This document shows, piece after piece, positions 13,193 through 41,017 of a stretch of DNA of 64,000 nucleotides. A program made the position numbers and the translations under genes. The notes beneath the pieces were generated by a model, which saw only the letters and a list, made by a program, of their open reading frames with translations, had not been told where the DNA came from and searched no databases. Position 1 is the stretch's first letter. Each line of letters starts with the position of its first letter. Source of the DNA: a virus (lineage: Duplodnaviria; Heunggongvirae; Uroviricota; Caudoviricetes); IMG/VR virus record IMGVR_UViG_3300029922_000040. The stretch is one strand, 5' to 3'.

Positions 13193-13239
13193 GCAAAAAC
13201 CAACTAAGACCGTCTATACTTCCTCGCAGGGGGAAGGAC

Positions 13240-13497
13240 ATGCCTCGTAGCAACAAAGCATTTGGGTCATACCAAAGTGGCAGCGGGTGTTCTATCGAAC
13301 CAGCGATACCGGCTCGGTGGGATGTTTTCCTTAAGGAACTCAACGTAACAGAAATGGAAGCTCTGACAATACTCAGGAGCCGGTCGGAATTGACACCCCG
13401 TATCCGGTCATGGGTAATGACAAACCACAGGTCAGCCTTTGTTCCTGAAGATTTCCTCATGACCTTGGGCATTCAAATGGAACTGTACGAAAACTAA
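13240..13497 (+). CDS. hypothetical protein (MPRSNKAF...)
   Basis: ATG 13240 with a gggaagga SD, inside ORF 13171..13497. Confidence 0.45.
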   Translation: MPRSNKAFGSYQSGSGCSIEPAIPARWDVFLKELNVTEMEALTILRSRSELTPRIRSWVMTNHRSAFVPEDFLMTLGIQMELYEN

Positions 13498-13885: not shown

Positions 13886-14617
13886 ATGAAAACAAAATGT
13901 GGATGTGTGGATACAGGGCAGTTTTTGCAGCTTTTTAATTCAGGGGCTCTACTTAACGAGATTGGCACAGAGCTTAATGTGAGCCAACGAACCCTGAGTC
14001 GAATCGTAAAACAACTAGGTTTGAACGCGAAGACACGCCCCAAATTTAAGGTGGCGAAGCCGTCATTAACCCGACAGGTGGGCAAAAAATATGCTTACCT
14101 CACTGTTGTTGGAACGGAGTACAACAGCCGGTTACATCAATGGGTGCTGACCATAAAGTGCGACTGTGGTCGTATTTCTACGGAGACGGCACCCAAGCTA
14201 GTCAACGGCGACCGTAAATCTTGCGGAGTTATCGGATGCTCCTATCGTGGAGTCGTACGTCAAGAAAACGGGAAGAAAGCAGGGTGGACGGGATGCGGGG
14301 AGATTTACGGATGTAGGTGGGATCAGTGGCGAATAGGTGCAGAAAAGCGAGGATTGGCGTTCGACATCAGCATTGAATACGCTTGGGAGTTGTTTGAAAA
14401 ACAAGGTCGTAAATGCGCGTTGACGGGAGAGCCGATAAGTTTTGGAAATTCGTGGAACCGAAAATGCACAGCTTCACTTGACCGAATTGACTCCGCTAAA
14501 CCTTACATTGAGGGCAATGTTCAATGGGTGCAGACGCGGGTCAATTTGATGAAACGTAGTATGGATGAGGCGGAGTTCATAGAACTCTGTGGATTGATAT
14601 GGAAGAACCGCTCCTAA
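13886..14617 (+). CDS. HTH + Cys-ribbon + HNH-like homing-endonuclease-type protein
   Basis: HTH-like segment LNEIGTELNVSQRTLSRIV. Cys module KCDCGRISTETAPKLVNGDRKSCG. C-terminal ASLDRIDSAKPYIEGNVQWV...VNLMK, which is typical of HNH homing endonucleases. Confidence 0.55.
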   Translation: MKTKCGCVDTGQFLQLFNSGALLNEIGTELNVSQRTLSRIVKQLGLNAKTRPKFKVAKPSLTRQVGKKYAYLTVVGTEYNSRLHQWVLTIKCDCGRISTETAPKLVNGDRKSCGVIGCSYRGVVRQENGKKAGWTGCGEIYGCRWDQWRIGAEKRGLAFDISIEYAWELFEKQGRKCALTGEPISFGNSWNRKCTASLDRIDSAKPYIEGNVQWVQTRVNLMKRSMDEAEFIELCGLIWKNRS

Positions 14618-32597: not shown

Positions 32598-35500
32598 ATG
32601 GCATCGACTATTGTACGAATTGATAACCAAGTTTTGGTTCGCGACAAGGGTGAGGGTGAAATACTCCCGGTGGGAGCCCAAATTGGAAATTGGTTTGTCA
32701 AGGGGGATATTGAGTACACCTACGAAATCCCCACACAAACCCGACTTTGTTTTTGTGGAAGGTGTAAGGGGCTTAACTGGCATCATCCTCCGGGTTCAAC
32801 TTTGATTGAATGCGGTAGCGGATTCAATCCGGCGTTAGCTCCTGACTTAATACAGGATGGCAAAGCCCGATATGAAATGGGGGCACGAACGGAGGAGGAT
32901 TGCCTTCGTTTGTGGGATGAGAAAAAAGTAATCGCTGGAGCACTGCGTAACCCGAGTATTGAACACCCCGAGTGGGGCAACCGCTTCAACAGGTACAACA
33001 AATGGGGGCAGTATCTTGGAATTCCCGACTACATCACAACCGATGAGTTGTTGAATCTCCTCCATTCAAACTACATCGAAGAGCGGCTGGCGTGGACTCG
33101 GGAAGCTACGCACGCAGCAACAGTTGAAATACGTTCAGCTTTTCAAAATCTTTTGCTGGCTGTCATTGGCGACTACGGTGGTTGCTTGGATGCATGTGCG
33201 AAGAAACTGAACTTGTCGGTCGAAACTCTCATCCAACGTTTGTGCGACTGCAAGAACGACGATGAGCGGCGGCAACTACTAGAAACCCCTAAGGAGCCTG
33301 AGACCCCTAAGGTTAGCCCCCCCGATACATGCCCGAAACCTGAAGACATCCCCACGTCTATCAAAAAACTTGACAAATTGATGCGGACGTACCCCAGTGG
33401 ATACTATGGCACGGCTGCAAATATACCTGAGATGTTAATACAACAGATGAACCAGTTACTGTGGATGCATTTAGAATTCCACGGTCTCGAACGCTTACAA
33501 CAGTGCCTTGCTGAGTGCATGACTGATACTCGTAAGCAATTTACAACCCTCTTTGAACAGGTGAAACGTTACCGAACCGAGAATCGCAACTGGATGCAAG
33601 CGTATTGCGTTTATTGGTTCGCTCACAGCGGACATCTTCTTGGGTTCAATCTAAGCGAGGCCGGAGCCGGAAAAACCAGCACCGTATATGCAATTGCGAA
33701 GGAGTTGGAACTAGAGAATGTTCTTATCCTCGGTACAAAATCTACGATTGATAACGATAACGATAACGACAGTCAATGGAAGCTGATGGCAAAGAGGGAG
33801 AACGAGCACAGGCAAAACATCTTCAACTGCCGTGACGTATTCGACCTCAAGAAGTTGGAATCAAAGCGGCGTAATTATGTGCTAGTAACTGAGTACACGG
33901 TGCAGAACAACCCCGACCTAATTGACCAGCTTTCCAAGATTCGCTGGGATATGATTGTCACTGATGAGCCCCAAGTATTCTCCGGCTCTAATGATGATAT
34001 AGACAGTACCAAACGGCTGAATCATTACTGTCGTCTTATTAGTGCAGCAATACAACTTAACCCTCGGTGCTTGAGGTACCTCATGTCAGCCACCCCCATT
34101 CGGTGTGAGGCCGAAGAGCTTATTCGAGTATTGGAGATAGTCTCAGGTGATGAACTTAAGAACGCAACTGGCGAGGGTGTATCCGGCCTTTTGAAGCTCC
34201 GCTTGTTTCTGTTCCGCAATGGATTTCGCTTCTACATCAATCCTAACCTTCTACCCATTGTGAAGCCGATAACTCTTGGTGTATACGAAGAGGTTGAACT
34301 CTTCGAAGACCCAGTTGTGAACTGCGTCATTATGGCTCAGTATCAATCGAACATCCTTTCCGAGGGTCGCACGATACTGGACATGGAGGTTGAAATGCTG
34401 CCGAGGCAGTGTGAGATTATCGAATCCAATCCAGTGCTTAAAAAAGCGTTTGTAGAAGCTTCATGCCCCATTCTTTATACACAGTTCACCGACACAAAAA
34501 GCAATCGAATTGTCTTTGTGCTGAAAGAATGGGCTGAGAAAATGAGACCGGGGTACCCAGTGTACATCTACACTGGGATGCACAAGCAAGACAAGCTGCT
34601 CAAAATCATTAAGAGGCATAAAGGTAAATGTACCCTCATTGCCAGTGCCCCCCTATCGGTTGGTCTGGACGGTCTTCAGAATCTTTCTGACACCATGTTT
34701 ATCATGGGCTCTCCGTGGCATTACGCTAACTTCGAGCAACTTCATCGCCGTATACGCCGCATTGGCTCACCCTTCTTGAATTCTGGTGTGGCGTGCATCG
34801 TAATGCTGGCGAAGGATGCTGAGTATCACGAAAATCGTTGGTCACGGCTGTGTCAGCGGCGGCGAAGCAGCTTGGTTGTTTTAGATGGAACCATTGTCCC
34901 TATTAACCCAAAACGTATCGAACAGGAGTACCTCAGGAACAAGGATAACATCTTGCGGTTATCTGGAGTGGAAGTGACCCCCGCTGCCACCGTTGTGGAT
35001 ATTACCACGCCACTCAAGCCTCGGAAGTACACCCCACCTAGAACAGTAATGATGGATGTTCATCGGCTGTATGCGAACTCTCACTCAGCCACACTGCCAC
35101 CCAAACGGCAAGGTGACCTGCTTATCGCTACCACGGGTAGAACATATAATCTAGCTGAGTATCATGCTGCCAATGAACTCACCAGCAAAGCGTACAAGCT
35201 TGTGTATGATACCTTTGTAGTGAAGAGCACCAACCTACGTATTCTAAGCTTGGGCTGCGGTACAACTGAACCTAAGTATGCACAGGAACTTGGCCTCCAG
35301 AATGTAACTTTTGTGGACATGCTCTTGACAGAGGAAGCGTATATTGAGTACCCTCAAATTTTACGACTCGACCGAAATGCAACAAAACTTCCTGATGGTT
35401 CGTTCGACCTTATTGTGTCTGTCCTTTCAATATTCCGGTTGGATTACGAACGCAGCATCCGAGAAATGGCACGGCTATTAGCTCCTAAAGGCCGTGCCAT

Positions 35501-35654
35501 CATTATTGAATCCTACCAATCTGAGAAAGCTGGTGGTAAACTTTGGGTACGGGAGAATTTAACCAAAGCATTCAAACTCAACGGTCTGAAATTCAAAGAA
35601 CCAAAACAGATGCCTAACCGGCATCTCCTGTTTGAAATACGAAAGGGGAGGTAG
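32598..35654 (+). CDS. SF2 (Snf2/DExH-like) helicase fused to a C-terminal SAM-dependent methyltransferase
   Basis: Helicase motifs: Walker A AGAGKTS, DEPQ box, and motif VI QLHRRIRRIG. Methyltransferase motifs: ILSLGCGTT and LLAPKGRAII. Confidence 0.75.
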   Translation: MASTIVRIDNQVLVRDKGEGEILPVGAQIGNWFVKGDIEYTYEIPTQTRLCFCGRCKGLNWHHPPGSTLIECGSGFNPALAPDLIQDGKARYEMGARTEEDCLRLWDEKKVIAGALRNPSIEHPEWGNRFNRYNKWGQYLGIPDYITTDELLNLLHSNYIEERLAWTREATHAATVEIRSAFQNLLLAVIGDYGGCLDACAKKLNLSVETLIQRLCDCKNDDERRQLLETPKEPETPKVSPPDTCPKPEDIPTSIKKLDKLMRTYPSGYYGTAANIPEMLIQQMNQLLWMHLEFHGLERLQQCLAECMTDTRKQFTTLFEQVKRYRTENRNWMQAYCVYWFAHSGHLLGFNLSEAGAGKTSTVYAIAKELELENVLILGTKSTIDNDNDNDSQWKLMAKRENEHRQNIFNCRDVFDLKKLESKRRNYVLVTEYTVQNNPDLIDQLSKIRWDMIVTDEPQVFSGSNDDIDSTKRLNHYCRLISAAIQLNPRCLRYLMSATPIRCEAEELIRVLEIVSGDELKNATGEGVSGLLKLRLFLFRNGFRFYINPNLLPIVKPITLGVYEEVELFEDPVVNCVIMAQYQSNILSEGRTILDMEVEMLPRQCEIIESNPVLKKAFVEASCPILYTQFTDTKSNRIVFVLKEWAEKMRPGYPVYIYTGMHKQDKLLKIIKRHKGKCTLIASAPLSVGLDGLQNLSDTMFIMGSPWHYANFEQLHRRIRRIGSPFLNSGVACIVMLAKDAEYHENRWSRLCQRRRSSLVVLDGTIVPINPKRIEQEYLRNKDNILRLSGVEVTPAATVVDITTPLKPRKYTPPRTVMMDVHRLYANSHSATLPPKRQGDLLIATTGRTYNLAEYHAANELTSKAYKLVYDTFVVKSTNLRILSLGCGTTEPKYAQELGLQNVTFVDMLLTEEAYIEYPQILRLDRNATKLPDGSFDLIVSVLSIFRLDYERSIREMARLLAPKGRAIIIESYQSEKAGGKLWVRENLTKAFKLNGLKFKEPKQMPNRHLLFEIRKGR

Positions 35655-35658
35655 TAAC

Positions 35659-35958
35659 ATGGCAAAGTTAAAACTGGAATTGCAGCGTGGTGGGGTACAG
35701 TCTCTTGTGACCCCGAAGGGAACCAAAGTATTGACTGGAGTGCCGCGAGTTGTGGCAACCAAATTTGGTACATACTTTGTGTTTGCGAAGACAAACGAAC
35801 ATGCGGAGAGCCTCATCAAGGTCGAGGGAACCGGACACCGCGTGTTCGAAGAGTATACGGTTGATGGCGTCACTGTGTATCGTCAGACCAAGGACACACC
35901 CAACGGCCAACTTAAGAAGGGTGAGTGGCATGTTGACGCGGATACTGTAACCTTGTAG
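35659..35958 (+). CDS. small beta-rich hypothetical protein (99 aa)
   Basis: ATG 35659 with a ggggagg SD, 5 nt after the helicase stop. Confidence 0.5.
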   Translation: MAKLKLELQRGGVQSLVTPKGTKVLTGVPRVVATKFGTYFVFAKTNEHAESLIKVEGTGHRVFEEYTVDGVTVYRQTKDTPNGQLKKGEWHVDADTVTL

Positions 35959-36023
35959 AATTGTCTGAAGCGCCGATGATGGCTCGAACAAGATTCTGCA
36001 CAAGATTCTAAAGAAGGGACTCT

Positions 36024-38594
36024 ATGAATTTCTCAGAAGTAAAAGCACACAGTATCGACGGGGTGTTCTACCTGACGATGAGCACCCACCCCGAACTTGC
36101 CAAGAAGGGCCGTCCTTTGGCACTCGTCAAATCTGGAAGTATGACGTTCTCCGACAATCAAGTAGCATTCAAGGGAGAGTCTTATCCCTTGGGGCTCACT
36201 CTCGCTGAGAACACCCCTTTAACCATCATTTTCACCAACCACAACAGCCGAGTGTTCAACATCGAACGCGGTGTGCAAACCAAGAAGCTTGAGAACGGTG
36301 ACCTTTTCTTCCAAGGCGAGAACCGCAACCATGGTAACAAGACCAAGGAAGAAATAGCAGCCAAAGGGACCGGCTACCTCACCCTCAAGAACCGGCTGTT
36401 CTACCATCATCGTGGTGTGGAGACCTCCGGTGCAGTTTTACCCAAGTGGGCCGCAGATAAGAAGACCAACTGGCGCTTGGTATGGAATATTCTCGCCTTG
36501 TTACTCCAATGGACTTTGCAGAAGAGCGAGGATGTTGGAGACACAACAACAAACTGGACACCACACATCAAAAGTGTTGCCATGCTTCTAACCGACGATA
36601 GGGAGGTGTCTGCATACCGTCGCACGACGTTGTCAGCCGAATCCACGGCCATCATCGAGCGCATCCGCAAAGTGATTGTGGACTCCATGAACGCTCACTA
36701 TGCTACTCGTGGACGCGAGGCTAAGTTACCTCTCCCGAAAAATCTTCGCGACAACGCCAAATACCCAGCCAACTTTTCTGACCTTCGCTACTTCATATAC
36801 CGCCTCGACAAGTATGAGAAGGAAGAAAAGGTTAAGGTTCTCGTTTGTGGGGTGGCTGAGAGCGACCCGGAGACCCTTCTCGCTAATTATCTGAAAACAG
36901 AACTGGGTAAATTGAAACGCCACAAAGAGCCCCTCAAAGCACTCAAGGCGCTTTTCACCAATATAGAGGAAACCAACTGGGCCGATGGCATGGGGGAGGT
37001 CTGGATGAATGGTGCAAAGCCATGGAGCGGTAACCTCTTCAATTACATCGGCAAGATGCTGGCTGTCCCCCCCGCAGAAATGGGTGAAATATCCACTCGC
37101 TTTCAAGCTGTGTTGAAACAGCGTGAATCGAAGAATAGTCCTTACGACAAAGGCTGGCCGAAACACATCCGCATTGATGAGGACACATGGCAGGTCTCCT
37201 ACGACGTACGTGGAAAGAAAACCCTCCGGGAAGTGCTGGATAACAAGGTTCCGCATATCCAGTTCACCGCCCCGCTGGATTCAATCAACACTGGAAAAGC
37301 ATTTCGTCACACCGTAACGGCTGTTGGCGACGACTTTGTGGTCACACCTGAGTTCAAGCCTATGACACCGGGCTCCTGCGCTGCCAAGCGGTCATTGCAC
37401 GGCGTTTCACTCACCGATGGCAAGGGCACCGACCCCTTCAAGTTGGCCGTCCTAGTTCACCGTGATGATGTTGACCTGAACGCTAAGGTGAAAAAGGTCA
37501 TTGTGTCCTTCAAGACAGAGAAGCGCAAAGTGGTTAAATACGCCGACCAAAATGGTCGAAACTCTGGTCTTGCGGCACCAGCGACCAAGCAGGTGCCCCA
37601 GTGCTACCTCAACTTCTGCCTTGCAGAAGTCAAGACTAACGAGAAGTACGATACGCGGGGCACCGGGTCGGCAAAGCTCACCCTCGGATGGAAGCTGGCG
37701 AAAGACGACCAGTTGAAAATCGTTACCGAGTCTCTTCCGACCGGGCAGACAAACGACTACTACTTGCCTCTCGGCGAAGAGTGGAAGACCGAAGGACTCT
37801 TCGCTGAAGGATGTGACAGCACGAAGAAGGGCAACGTTTGGTCGCGCAAGTCGGGGTATACACTGGCATTCCGCACGTTATACGGATGGCCGGGTGAGGA
37901 AGCCATTAAAAATGCCCAGAAGGCAGAACTTCAGGCACACTTCCGCACAAATACTTTGACGTACAATTGGCTTAAGACTACCCTCTTGTCACTACCGGAG
38001 CAGCTTGACCTTCTGCTCAACGCGGCCAAGGATGAGGGGTACAAGCTTATGACTGAGGAGCAGCGGAACATTGTTGACGCGGCAGGTTGGCGTATGGTTC
38101 GCCAGTCTGGCATGGTTCGTTACATCAACGAACTCCGCATTGGTGCCGGGACGCTAACTACAACCTACAACACTAACCCAAGTCGTCAGAGCGAGAAGTC
38201 CAAACCGCTCGGCTCTAACCCCGAACTCCTTCGTCTCTGGCTTCGCTGGCTTGAGTTCAACGACCGCCTTCGCACTGTAGAGCGTATGGTGCGTGAGAAC
38301 CTGTTGGGACGCCGTAAAGCTTACTACTATGTTCTCGCACACCGCATCTGCGACCATGCGTCAACCATCTCTTACAAGAAATTGAACCTCAAGGACGCTT
38401 CAGAGAAAGAGACCCGCGCCAAGAAGAAGGACAAGGGCGACAAAATGGCTTCCGATGCTTCGCAGAAGTACCGCTCGTGGGCATCACTGGCCGAATTTAC
38501 AACCATCCTCAAGCACGTCGCATTCAAGCGTGGCGTGACGGTCGAGGAGGTTGTTGAAGCCCTTGTTGACAAAGCTCTGGCCGCGTCAGCTTAA
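36024..38594 (+). CDS. large hypothetical protein (856 aa) immediately upstream of the CRISPR array; candidate array-associated effector. The function assignment itself is low confidence.
   Basis: Clean ORF ending in a strong terminator 100 nt before the array. No HNH, HEPN pair or Zn finger is present. Weak RuvC-like D..E..D candidates lie in the C-terminal 200 aa: NIVDAAGWRMVRQSG, MVRENL and SDASQKY. Confidence 0.8.
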   Translation: MNFSEVKAHSIDGVFYLTMSTHPELAKKGRPLALVKSGSMTFSDNQVAFKGESYPLGLTLAENTPLTIIFTNHNSRVFNIERGVQTKKLENGDLFFQGENRNHGNKTKEEIAAKGTGYLTLKNRLFYHHRGVETSGAVLPKWAADKKTNWRLVWNILALLLQWTLQKSEDVGDTTTNWTPHIKSVAMLLTDDREVSAYRRTTLSAESTAIIERIRKVIVDSMNAHYATRGREAKLPLPKNLRDNAKYPANFSDLRYFIYRLDKYEKEEKVKVLVCGVAESDPETLLANYLKTELGKLKRHKEPLKALKALFTNIEETNWADGMGEVWMNGAKPWSGNLFNYIGKMLAVPPAEMGEISTRFQAVLKQRESKNSPYDKGWPKHIRIDEDTWQVSYDVRGKKTLREVLDNKVPHIQFTAPLDSINTGKAFRHTVTAVGDDFVVTPEFKPMTPGSCAAKRSLHGVSLTDGKGTDPFKLAVLVHRDDVDLNAKVKKVIVSFKTEKRKVVKYADQNGRNSGLAAPATKQVPQCYLNFCLAEVKTNEKYDTRGTGSAKLTLGWKLAKDDQLKIVTESLPTGQTNDYYLPLGEEWKTEGLFAEGCDSTKKGNVWSRKSGYTLAFRTLYGWPGEEAIKNAQKAELQAHFRTNTLTYNWLKTTLLSLPEQLDLLLNAAKDEGYKLMTEEQRNIVDAAGWRMVRQSGMVRYINELRIGAGTLTTTYNTNPSRQSEKSKPLGSNPELLRLWLRWLEFNDRLRTVERMVRENLLGRRKAYYYVLAHRICDHASTISYKKLNLKDASEKETRAKKKDKGDKMASDASQKYRSWASLAEFTTILKHVAFKRGVTVEEVVEALVDKALAASA

Positions 38595-38604
38595 AAACGA
38601 GAAA

Positions 38605-38638
38605 CGCGAGAGGATAATCAATACTCTTCTCGCGTTTT
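38605..38638 (+). terminator. rho-independent terminator after the 856-aa gene
   Basis: About 10-bp stem at 38605-38614 / 38625-38634, then TTTT 38635-38638. Confidence 0.55.
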
Positions 38639-38643
38639 CCTGA

Positions 38644-38672
38644 GGTTCTAGTTAAGGCAATTGGTGTATAAT
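38644..38672 (+). promoter_or_regulatory. extended -10 promoter (TGtTATAAT) for the CRISPR array leader
   Basis: TG 38665-38666 and TATAAT 38667-38672, about 20 nt upstream of the first repeat. Confidence 0.4.
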
Positions 38673-38692
38673 CTATGGGTTGGGGCTATCCT

Positions 38693-39468
38693 CCTGTAGA
38701 CTTACTGGATTTGAAGGCTGAATCCAACATAGCCGCCGATGCGTATATAGGTTCCTAACCTGTAGACTTACTGGATTTGAAGGCTGAATCCAACGGGAGA
38801 GCCCGAGGATAAAATCAATGGAGACCTGTAGACTTACTGGATTTGAAGGCTGAATCCAACAGAGATGATTGTTAATGAAAAGACATCAACCCTGTAGACT
38901 TACTGGATTTGAAGGCTGAATCCAACGTAACTTGGGTTGTGCCATAGGTGGCAACACCTGTAGACTTACTGGATTTGAAGGCTGAATCCAACCCAGCATA
39001 CTGAGGGCCGTCATTGGTTCTCCCTGTAGACTTACTGGATTTGAAGGCTGAATCCAACTAGATCAGGTATTCGGAGTCTGAGTAAAGCCCTGTAGACTTA
39101 CTGGATTTGAAGGCTGAATCCAACAGTCAGCTTTGGCACACCTGTAGATTTACTGGATTTGGAGGCTGAATCCAACGGAGGGATGTACCGTTGAACGTCG
39201 AAACCTGTATACTGGATTTGGAGGCTGAATCCAACATATTGCTGCACCGCTTACTGGATTTGAAGGCTGAATCCAACGAAGCTTGCCTTGGTACTGTCCC
39301 TGTAGACTTTACTGGATTTGAAGGCTAAATCCACCTACGGAACGCAGCCGTGATGTCTTTGGGTTGCCCGTATACCCACTGGATTTGAAGGCTGAATCCA
39401 ACCCTGATGGCACTCACGTGTGGATGGCGGAACCTGTAGACTTACTGGATTTGAAGGCTGAATCCAAC
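38693..39468 (+). CRISPR. CRISPR array: 13 repeats (6 intact, 1 intact with a truncated spacer, 5 degenerate or 5'-truncated, then a final intact repeat) with 12 spacers of mostly 30-31 nt
   Basis: Repeat CCTGTAGACTTACTGGATTTGAAGGCTGAATCCAAC has copies starting near 38693, 38759, 38825, 38891, 38957, 39023, 39089, 39141, 39205, 39249, 39299, 39377 and 39433. A 6-bp hairpin (TGGATT / AATCCA) sits near the repeat 3' end. Confidence 0.9.
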
Positions 39469-39540
39469 TTCGCTACGCTCACGGGAATTATGCTCTGCAA
39501 ATGGGTTTGTGGAACGAGCCCATCAAGAAGGGACTAAAAA

Positions 39541-39583
39541 AATCCCAAAAAACTATCCAAAACCTCGGAGTCTCCGATATACT
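39541..39583 (+). promoter_or_regulatory. conserved phage promoter copy 11, directly after the array
   Basis: TATCCA 39555-39560, 17 nt, TATACT 39578-39583; in-frame ATG at 39590. Confidence 0.5.
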
Positions 39584-39589
39584 ACATGT

Positions 39590-40003
39590 ATGAAGGAACT
39601 CCACATTACCTCATCGAAGATTGTGGTCTCGGCCAACAACCTGTGTAAGTCTGGGTACTCCGTCAGCCACAACGTGAAGGGTATCCTCCCCGGATGTCGT
39701 AAAGTTGCCATCCTTTTTGTTTCAACCAGCACAGGCTGTGTCTGGGTCAAAAATCTGTACAGCCACAACGGTGAGGCACACATCCATCCCGACCACTGGG
39801 CACAGCTTATCAAGGCCACGCCGGTCGTCTCCTCCACACTCAGGAACTTTGAGGTTACCCTGACCCCTGCGATTATCGCGGATGCTTACAACTACGTTAC
39901 GAGCATCACTGTTGAACCGGCCATCAGGAGCCAAGAGAAGTCCCCCAACTACATACCGAAGCTCGACCCTATGGTGGTCGTAGGAGATTCCAATGGCAAG
40001 TAA
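39590..40003 (+). CDS. hypothetical protein (MKELHITSS..., 137 aa)
   Basis: In frame with ORF 39509..40003; start placed downstream of the promoter. Confidence 0.5.
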   Translation: MKELHITSSKIVVSANNLCKSGYSVSHNVKGILPGCRKVAILFVSTSTGCVWVKNLYSHNGEAHIHPDHWAQLIKATPVVSSTLRNFEVTLTPAIIADAYNYVTSITVEPAIRSQEKSPNYIPKLDPMVVVGDSNGK

Positions 40004-40137
40004 GCGTCAAACAAAAAAGAAAGAGCCTGTGACCTACGAGGATTTTCTCGCTCACGAGTGGGAACAGTGGGGGTCGTCCCGCGCTCATGAACGTGTAAAC
40101 ATCCCTGAGCCGTCGTAAACCGTATGATGCCGGTCGA

Positions 40138-40713
40138 ATGCCGCGTCTTTGTTGGTGGACTGAGGCCAACCCTCTCGCACTCGAAAGCGACACAGCGTTC
40201 TCCCGGCCACGCCTCAACACCAACTACATCCAGACTTCGTTGGATAGCCTGATTCACATGGTGTACCACCGGGGTCTCATCGACAGCCCCGACTATCAGC
40301 GGGGCTATGTCTGGACTCTGGAAGACAAGCAGAAACTTATTCGGAGCATTTTCAACCGGGCTGACATTGGCAAGTTCGTTTTCCTTGAGGATGAGAACTA
40401 CCGTGAGTATCGGCTGGAAGTCATCGACGGCAAGCAACGGCTTCGGGCTATCACGGAATTTTACGAGGGTCGCTTCGAGTTTGAAGGTAAGACGTGGTAT
40501 CAGCTTTCACGGCGGGACAAATATGCGTTCTGCGACATCATGATTCAAGCGGCTACGCTACAACGTGGTAAAGTCAAGCGGTCGGATGTTCTCTGGCTGT
40601 TTCTCCAGTTGAACGCTGGCGGCGTCCCTCAGACCGAGGAGCACATCGCCTACGCTCGTAAGCTGTACGAGGCTGAAATTGCGAACGAGAAGGACATGGA
40701 AATAATTTCCTGA
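40138..40713 (+). CDS. DUF262 / ParB-like nuclease-domain (GmrSD N-terminal-type) protein
   Basis: DYQRGYVW and VIDGKQRL motifs. Confidence 0.6.
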   Translation: MPRLCWWTEANPLALESDTAFSRPRLNTNYIQTSLDSLIHMVYHRGLIDSPDYQRGYVWTLEDKQKLIRSIFNRADIGKFVFLEDENYREYRLEVIDGKQRLRAITEFYEGRFEFEGKTWYQLSRRDKYAFCDIMIQAATLQRGKVKRSDVLWLFLQLNAGGVPQTEEHIAYARKLYEAEIANEKDMEIIS

Positions 40714-40748
40714 AATAGTATCCAAAACGTTGGTGTCTCCGATATACT
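40705..40748 (+). promoter_or_regulatory. conserved phage promoter copy 12
   Basis: TATCCA 40719-40724, 18 nt, TATACT 40743-40748. Confidence 0.5.
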
Positions 40749-40768
40749 AATCATGTGGAGGAAACACC

Positions 40769-41017
40769 ATGAACGAGTTGAAAGCCCGGAAAGTCGCAAA
40801 CGAGAGGTTAGCTGCAATGCCGACCTACCACCCGTTCATCCCCATTGAAGACATCGACAGCATCCTGACCGCCGCAGGTTTCAACGGAATGGAACCCGCC
40901 ATCTTCTGCGGTCGCGAAGGTCGCAGCAATGAGCCGGTTGGTGAGAAGACTTGGCTGAGCATGACTTGGTACAAGATGCCCTCCGGTAACTACGAAATCG
41001 TCGCTTACGTTAGCTAG
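40769..41017 (+). CDS. hypothetical protein (82 aa)
   Basis: ORF with a ggagg SD. Confidence 0.5.
   Translation: MNELKARKVANERLAAMPTYHPFIPIEDIDSILTAAGFNGMEPAIFCGREGRSNEPVGEKTWLSMTWYKMPSGNYEIVAYVS

Follow-up and report, generated by a model that had tools for sequence, protein, structure and literature searches.

A distant Cas12m-like protein that has lost its nuclease site, with an adjacent CRISPR array, on a large phage-like element

A 64,000-nucleotide (nt) stretch of viral DNA (Caudoviricetes; IMG/VR record IMGVR_UViG_3300029922_000040), referred to as the window throughout, was analysed for its CRISPR array and for the genes that accompany it. The array lies at 38693–39468 on the + strand, and the gene just upstream (36024–38594, +) encodes a protein of 856 amino acids (aa) that is distantly Cas12m-like and in which the RuvC catalytic residues, the zinc ribbon and the RuvC-III motif are absent. 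The two probably form a self-contained type V locus whose product binds DNA under RNA guidance and does not cut it, carried on a large phage-like element. What the sequences themselves show is a CRISPR array, its pairing with the effector across lineages, an effector of Cas12m-like sequence and fold without the catalytic motifs, and a conserved repeat architecture; cas1, cas2, cas4, a tracrRNA candidate and a host copy of the repeat were searched for and not found.

Identity of the effector and its relatives

The 856-aa protein gave no sequence match in Pfam, NCBIfam, PHROGs or PDB. Among 5.8 billion protein clusters, a word-indexed search revealed a sole homologue, P0001 (844 aa, 53% identical), and the word-indexed profile search likewise returned P0001 only. 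Ten matches came from an exhaustive HMMER search, which covered 1.84 billion representatives; besides P0001 and one fragment, they were weak and reached only the C-terminal 100–230 residues of the window protein. The majority of these distant proteins bear the Cas12f1-like TNB zinc-ribbon domain of TnpB/Cas12. Full-length alignment with the window protein could be obtained for P0003, P0004 and P0005 (731–860 aa), P0004 being 22–26% identical to it. The exact window protein was present on 19 contigs from several data sources, and contigs bearing it reach lengths of 50–200 kb. No relatives of the effector were found in the phage reference collection by protein and DNA searches, in IMG/VR or among species genomes.

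Hidden Markov model (HMM) searches with PADLOC matched the window protein to Cas12u1 and Cas12f. The best model was Cas12u1 (E 1.3e-5), covering residues 742–844 only, that is, about 100 C-terminal residues; P0003 and P0005 matched the same model at about 1e-22. V-U1 is the former name of subtype V-M. A profile built from five full-length relatives matched solved Cas12m more strongly (1.7e-20) than Fanzor2, Cas12n or TnpB. When an AlphaFold model of the effector was searched with Foldseek, the top four matches were Cas12m/Cas12m2 structures (E 1.5e-10 to 1.3e-8), and the best fold matches were all Cas12, TnpB or Fanzor structures. Judged by deep search, profile comparison and predicted fold, the 856-aa protein is nearest to Cas12m (type V-M) and is most likely a very rare, distant relative of it. 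The earlier note on this DNA had seen a resemblance to Cas12a and Cas12j in the repeat hairpin; the effector is closest to neither Cas12a nor CasPhi in any of the three comparisons. In agreement with type V, the locus has a single large effector with a TnpB-derived RuvC-like domain of RNase H fold, and the open reading frame (ORF) of this effector ends 99 nt before repeat 1 of the array.

Stepwise loss of the nuclease site

The position of the RuvC-I Asp is occupied by T553 in the window protein, by K in P0001 and by V in P0004, and the Asp is kept in P0003, P0005, P0007 and P0010. The canonical RuvC-II Glu position holds K785 in the window protein and T in P0001, and the alternate RuvC-II position of the clade (found as LNVE, LNIE or PDLE) holds K790 in the window protein, the Glu being kept in P0003, P0005 and L020. 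In the window protein, neither the D-E-D catalytic triad of RuvC nor a known rearrangement of it could be recognized. In both the window protein and P0001, the last RuvC strand is followed by about 13 more residues, so that neither reaches the CxxC...CxxC ribbon or the DQDxNAA motif of P0003, P0005, P0007 and P0010; the RuvC-inserted TNB zinc finger and the third RuvC motif characteristic of V-M are missing from both proteins. In line with this, the PADLOC match of the window protein reaches only position 487 of the 533 profile positions, and both proteins break off about 45 positions early. P0004 keeps the ribbon and has DRYENRA instead of DQDxNAA, and the relative encoded on contig L020 is intact (GIDVGW, FAEKLNL, ribbon and DQDENAA). 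As read from the sequences, the clade is a graded series that runs from intact proteins through dead, full-length ones to those that are both dead and truncated. The three dead lineages each retain a full-length ORF (856, 844 and 860 aa) in which conserved blocks occur from end to end.

Organization of the CRISPR array

The 24-nt core of the repeat, CTGGATTTGAAGGCTGAATCCAAC, occurs in 13 copies at up to 3 mismatches, all of them within 38705–39468 on the + strand and none elsewhere in the window, compared with 0 in 100 shuffles. The count of 13 repeats and 12 spacers in the earlier note was therefore confirmed at the same coordinates, and the regular 36-nt repeat that it described holds for repeats 1–7 and 13 but not for repeats 8–12, which are substituted or 5'-truncated. 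The regular part of the array (38693–39124, +) comprises repeats 1–7, all perfect 36-mers, and spacers 1–6 of 30 nt each, with a period of 66. In the irregular part (39125–39468, +), consisting of repeats 8–13, the 5' halves are often deleted or mutated and the 24-nt 3' handle is almost unchanged. Start-to-start spacings for repeats 8–12 are 52, 59, 42, 58 and 67, with shortened spacers, and the handle-to-handle gaps across repeats 8–13 are 28, 35, 18, 34, 43 and 42 nt, the regular unit having 42 nt; repeat 13 is perfect again. Seven units are thus regular and five have a shortened spacer or a damaged repeat 5' end, so that about one third of the units of the window array are irregular.

Repeat architecture and the predicted guide RNA

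The repeat of the window contains a 6-bp stem, TGGATT/AATCCA, which ends 2 nt before the spacer. This stem, already proposed from the sequence in the earlier note, was upheld by folding and by compensatory change across four repeat families. The folding energy of a single repeat sequence is unremarkable (z −1.0), and it is the compensatory changes, not the energy, that argue for a real stem. Each of the four complete repeat types has a length of 36 nt and contains a perfect 6-bp stem with its 3' arm at −8 to −3, followed by AC, and the stems covary with full compensation (UGGAUU/AAUCCA, UGCAGU/ACUGCA, UUCACC/GGUGAA). The stems were tabulated from the 3' end of the repeat; MAFFT-based counting of covariation was dropped, as differing loop lengths misalign the stems.

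Erosion of the repeat was found to be one-sided. Handles without a recognizable 5' half account for 3 of 13 in the window array and 12 of 38 in the array of the related contig L001, and 5' halves without a handle for 0 of 10 and 1 of 26, respectively. Judging from these counts, the constraint on the repeat falls on the 3' handle only, a pattern which fits a guide RNA composed of the 3'-repeat handle and a short guide, the remainder being dispensable. An anti-repeat search detected none near the locus, no candidate for a trans-activating CRISPR RNA (tracrRNA) came up, and Rfam gave no family match within 35000–41000. The CRISPR RNA (crRNA) of solved Cas12m2 has a 36-nt scaffold that terminates in A(−2)C(−1) and contains a 6-bp helix (−22 to −17 with −8 to −3); C(−1) is read base-specifically, and the guide–target heteroduplex is only 17 bp. 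The crRNA predicted for the window agrees with V-M guides in its 36-nt repeat, its 6-bp helix ending at −3, its AC end and the lack of a tracrRNA candidate.

Terminator and candidate promoter of the array

Directly after the effector stop codon lies a terminator-like hairpin with a U-run (38601–38638, +; fold −19.5 kcal/mol, z −5.2), and none of 200 shuffles folded as well. Equivalent hairpins follow the effector stop in L001 (z −4.2) and L015 (z −6.6), both with a U-run, and a weaker one in L013 (z −2.9). A candidate −10 box of an array promoter, TG plus TATAAT, could be read from the sequence at 38665–38672 (+); repeat 1 begins 20 nt further on, and the −35 element is weak. Boxes of the TGnTATAAT type are located between hairpin and repeat 1 in L001 (TGCTATAAT), L015 (TGGTAATAT) and L013 (TTTATAAT) as well, and the distance from the TATAAT-like −10 box to repeat 1 ranges from 8 to 40 nt across the window and the related loci. 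The promoter that the earlier note had assigned to the array gains support from this conserved hairpin and −10 layout, but not from the consensus promoter scan of the window, which did not report the candidate box. A promoter predicted by the scan at 38591–38618 was rejected, as it overlaps the terminator hairpin and is not conserved.

Two extended −10 boxes, TGGTATAAT, were also observed inside the L001 array (13236–13257 and 14262–14282), each about 9 nt before a handle. Transcripts from them would begin at the handle, so that no 5' processing would be needed.

Pairing of effector and array across lineages

An array follows every relative of the effector for which downstream DNA could be read. 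P0001 is followed by a 38-unit array, the repeat of which has its 3' 24–26 nt in common with the window repeat and differs in the first 10 nt. P0003 precedes an array of 9 repeats in one sample and of 2 in another, the L020 effector precedes 7 repeats, and the contig of P0004 stops inside a first repeat that is nearly identical to the window repeat. The array most likely belongs to the 856-aa gene just upstream. Searches for the repeat core among 185,579 species genomes (one each; the host may lie outside this collection) and in IMG/VR gave no match, and metagenome matches to the core were confined to three contigs from two bog samples that had also yielded P0001 contigs. The earlier note had left the array either dependent on host Cas proteins or tied to the adjacent ORFs; of the two, the tie to the adjacent ORF is by far the likelier. 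A host subtype with an identical repeat, which would have meant simple borrowing of host Cas, did not appear among the species genomes searched with the 24-nt core. A search of 90 ORFs of the window detected no Cas1, Cas2 or Cas4, which bears out the absence of cas1 and cas2 noted before and extends it to Cas4.

The leader-proximal spacers of the P0001 lineage vary between samples and the older spacers are common to them. This variation fits polarised acquisition in trans, and may alternatively come from differential loss from a longer ancestral array.

A solitary L001-type repeat with a guide-like sequence was encountered far from any array on another contig, L017 (1279–1349; bog sample Ga0181529). 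By eye, this unit lies about 70 nt upstream of two apparent tRNA genes and has a promoter-like site, TTTACA-N17-TAGAGT, just upstream.

Search for spacer targets

A BLAST search of the spacers, as suggested in the earlier note, revealed no target in phage, plasmid or own-window sequence. Local BLAST of 61 spacers gave chance-level matches only; the best of them (17 of 18 nt, window 26326–26343) was rejected, as it fell to 17 of 22 when extended. The solitary guide of L017 and the terminal guides had no match in the local sequences. Spacers of the window array matched nothing in the phage or plasmid references, and those of the relatives gave only chance-level matches (E 0.5–0.7) in the same references. 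In IMG/VR, none of six 20-nt spacer prefixes found a counterpart.

Spacer 2 of L020 (12974–13010) agrees at 31 of 37 nt with a hypothetical gene that over 100 Mycobacterium phages carry (E 0.5, not significant). This is a weak lead, not a result, and fits an actinobacterial host for the L020 relative.

Neighbouring genes and window context

The effector gene is preceded by two further conserved genes. The first gene of this conserved cassette (32598–35654, +) encodes a 1018-aa protein in which a superfamily 2 helicase (ResIII/Helicase_C, weak) is fused to an S-adenosylmethionine-dependent methyltransferase, according to Pfam, NCBIfam and PADLOC matches; its homologues hold the same position in L001 (55%), L015 (25%), L020 (about 35%) and L021/L022. 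Between it and the effector lies a conserved small ORF (35659–35958, +) for a 99-aa protein with an all-beta domain, which is a possible accessory protein. At least four lineages, with 41–67% GC, have both genes in this order, L020 with its intact RuvC among them. The conserved order may reflect a functional module or inherited gene order, and the data fit both.

Many non-structural genes of phage type are present in the window, among them those for endonuclease VII, HNH homing endonucleases, ligases of RNA and DNA, and a CCA-adding enzyme. The 25 of 51 matching families listed include neither a capsid nor a terminase gene. Several other genes were observed. At 20973–22181 (+), a 402-aa TnpB contains OrfB_IS605 and a Cas12f1-like TNB domain; its best PADLOC models are Cas12f/Cas14b, and its lineage is separate from that of the 856-aa effector. 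An ORF running off the left end (2–2557, +) contains the shoulder domain of the Major Vault Protein together with vault repeat domains (E 4e-23 and 4e-10), which are unusual on a phage-like element. A 501-aa ORF at 23472–24977 (+) contains the catalytic and regulatory domains of poly(ADP-ribose) polymerase, and a 1325-aa ORF at 55300–59277 (+) has an Xre/MbcA/ParS-type antitoxin C-terminal domain at residues 938–986. On the 3' side of the array, a 191-aa ORF (40138–40713, +) has, of the GmrSD restriction endonucleases, the N-terminal domain only; a GmrSD_N ORF is present in L001 too, on the opposite side of the effector.

The contig of P0003 (L013, 211 kb) has a PRTRC-like set, namely Prok_Ub, Prok-E2_D, ThiF and PRTRC_E, at 1–5200, upstream of its effector. 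It also encodes an SNF2-like helicase and, downstream, a single-stranded DNA-binding protein (SSB), DnaB and ScpA, and could represent either a megaplasmid or a phage of very large size.

Comparison with known systems

Cas12m of subtype V-M (MmCas12m2, GoCas12m, PmCas12m) resembles the window system most closely, being the best HMM, profile and fold match for the effector. The resemblance extends to the 36-nt repeat, with its 6-bp helix at −8 to −3, A(−2)C(−1) and no tracrRNA candidate, and to carriage on mobile elements without adaptation genes. However, solved Cas12m chains are of 577–614 aa (about 570–615), so that the 856-aa window protein lies outside this compact size range; Cas12m keeps the whole RuvC fold, the TNB zinc finger and the third motif (DED, HDD or NDD triads), whereas in the window protein all three catalytic residues are missing, as are the entire TNB and RuvC-III segment; and direct sequence similarity covers only about 100 C-terminal residues (E 1e-5). 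Cas12m is known to bind DNA without cleavage, to silence its targets, and to process pre-crRNA independently of RuvC. Gradual RuvC inactivation within V-M has already been documented, and non-cutting type V effectors are known.

TldR proteins have a mutated RuvC and a C-terminal truncation of the zinc finger and RuvC, yet they perform RNA-guided DNA binding and repress transcription. The stepwise loss of RuvC residues and the C-terminal truncation are found in the window protein as well, and both are phage-borne. In contrast, TldRs are TnpB-like and use one adjacent omega-RNA-type guide against a fixed target without a CRISPR array, whereas the window system has a much larger, Cas12m-type protein and a 13-unit array (38 in the orthologue), with spacers that vary in the sister lineage.

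Type IV-A systems are similarly plasmid-borne, without an acquisition module or nuclease, and encode a helicase (DinG), but they are class 1 systems with a multi-subunit effector and have no sequence or structure kinship with the window protein; the title of a preprint reports spacer acquisition in trans for type IV-A3. Leaving locus composition aside, CasPhi (Cas12j) and CasLambda are alike in being phage-borne single effectors with a crRNA-only guide and a 3' repeat hairpin. Of the other naturally non-cutting type V effectors, Cas12k, Cas12c and nuclease-dead Cas12f homologues are not the closest to the window effector by fold or sequence, and the neighbourhood of this effector showed neither Tn7 genes nor a sigma factor. 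Two newly named, inactivated type V subtypes, V-O and V-P, have reportedly been introduced, apparently by one defining paper. In a comparison that left out V-O and V-P, no description was found of a phage-borne, enlarged Cas12m-like protein that lacks the TNB domain, as the window protein does, and is accompanied by an array.

Proposed mechanism

In the proposed mechanism, the array would be transcribed from its own promoter, apart from the effector gene. In the guide RNA, the last 24–26 nt or so of the repeat (6-bp hairpin and AC) would form the 5' handle, and the guide after it would be about 16–20 nt long or longer. The 856-aa protein would bind the handle and pair the guide with complementary double-stranded DNA. 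Cutting should be impossible, because the RuvC catalytic residues, the zinc ribbon and the RuvC-III segment have all been lost. Once bound, the effector would form a roadblock that keeps the target from being transcribed or replicated, as with Cas12m and TldR proteins, and the targets may be a competing element or host genes. The Cas12m and TldR precedents make RNA-guided binding without cutting the most likely mechanism; expression, guide processing, DNA binding, silencing and target identity are conditional throughout this account.

Several points weigh against such a DNA binder. We only infer that the locus is expressed. No protospacer was found for any spacer in local sequences, phage and plasmid references or, for the prefixes, IMG/VR; we therefore infer the function as well, and no protospacer adjacent motif is deducible. 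The array of the window lineage is the same in five samples except for one deleted unit, and shows no turnover of its own. The model of the effector is of moderate quality only (predicted local distance difference test 69.8, predicted template modelling score 0.48, from 10 sequences). Finally, an engineered deletion of TNB in PmCas12m reduced or abolished activity, so that a protein naturally without TNB may need compensating features.

Alternative explanations

The dead effector could instead be a targeting module that recruits the helicase-methyltransferase, perhaps with the small all-beta protein, for methylation, remodelling or translocation at the target. The conserved cassette suggests this, but it accompanies an intact-RuvC effector in L020 and so is not tied to nuclease loss; the P0003 locus has no homologue of the helicase-methyltransferase, the methyltransferase matches are generic and do not indicate DNA as substrate, and the loci have other genes in common (such as the CCA-adding enzyme in L015), so that shared ancestry could explain the linkage. 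Such recruitment is considered unlikely. A decaying relic, in which the nuclease and C-terminus have been lost, the array is eroding and both are inactive, would account for the damage to about one third of the window units, the failure to find a spacer target or adaptation genes, and an array unchanged in five samples. Still, a relic is improbable given the full-length ORF with conserved blocks throughout in three dead lineages, the exact window protein on 19 contigs from several data sources, the conserved terminator and −10 layout, and the variation of leader-end spacers between samples in the sister lineage; moreover, erosion is one-sided, with handles kept and the parts expected to be trimmed lost.

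Two further explanations have very little probability. Host-dependent viral mini-arrays are a known phenomenon, and the window has no adaptation genes, so the array might be served by a host Cas effector and be unrelated to the adjacent ORF; yet the repeat core is absent from the 185,579 species genomes and IMG/VR, the array always stands beside this protein family, the repeat changes along with the protein, and the adjacent ORF has a Cas12 fold. Alternatively, the dead effector or repeat RNAs might serve as an anti-CRISPR decoy that sequesters guides or competes with a host type V system, without DNA targeting, for which the one solitary repeat-plus-guide unit of L017 could be an example. A decoy, however, has no need of 12 to 38 different spacers or of leader-end spacer variation, and no host system with this repeat is known.

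Implications

Should the helicase-methyltransferase, the all-beta protein, the Cas12m-like binder and the array work as one machine, which we consider doubtful, guide-directed methylation or remodelling would take place in a large phage, and the dead lineages would have given up all nuclease function in favour of the helicase-methyltransferase partner. In a related reading, the internal −10 boxes of L001 and the L017 unit would represent an array that is becoming a set of separately transcribed, hard-wired guide genes; if true, this is an intermediate that links CRISPR arrays to regulators with a single guide, such as TldR.

As the non-cutting binder proposed here, the window protein would be reduced further than any other Cas12m-type effector seen so far that still has a CRISPR array. 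One small clade would then parallel the stepwise decay from TnpB to TldR, from nuclease to binder, with the array kept in this case. The conserved helicase-methyltransferase neighbour is a concrete candidate partner. The clade is relevant to the question of how much of the RuvC lobe can be removed without loss of RNA-guided DNA binding, a limit that matters for compact CRISPR interference and epigenome-editing tools. It would also add the case of a large phage-like element with a non-cutting CRISPR system, the spacer supply of which must necessarily come from elsewhere.
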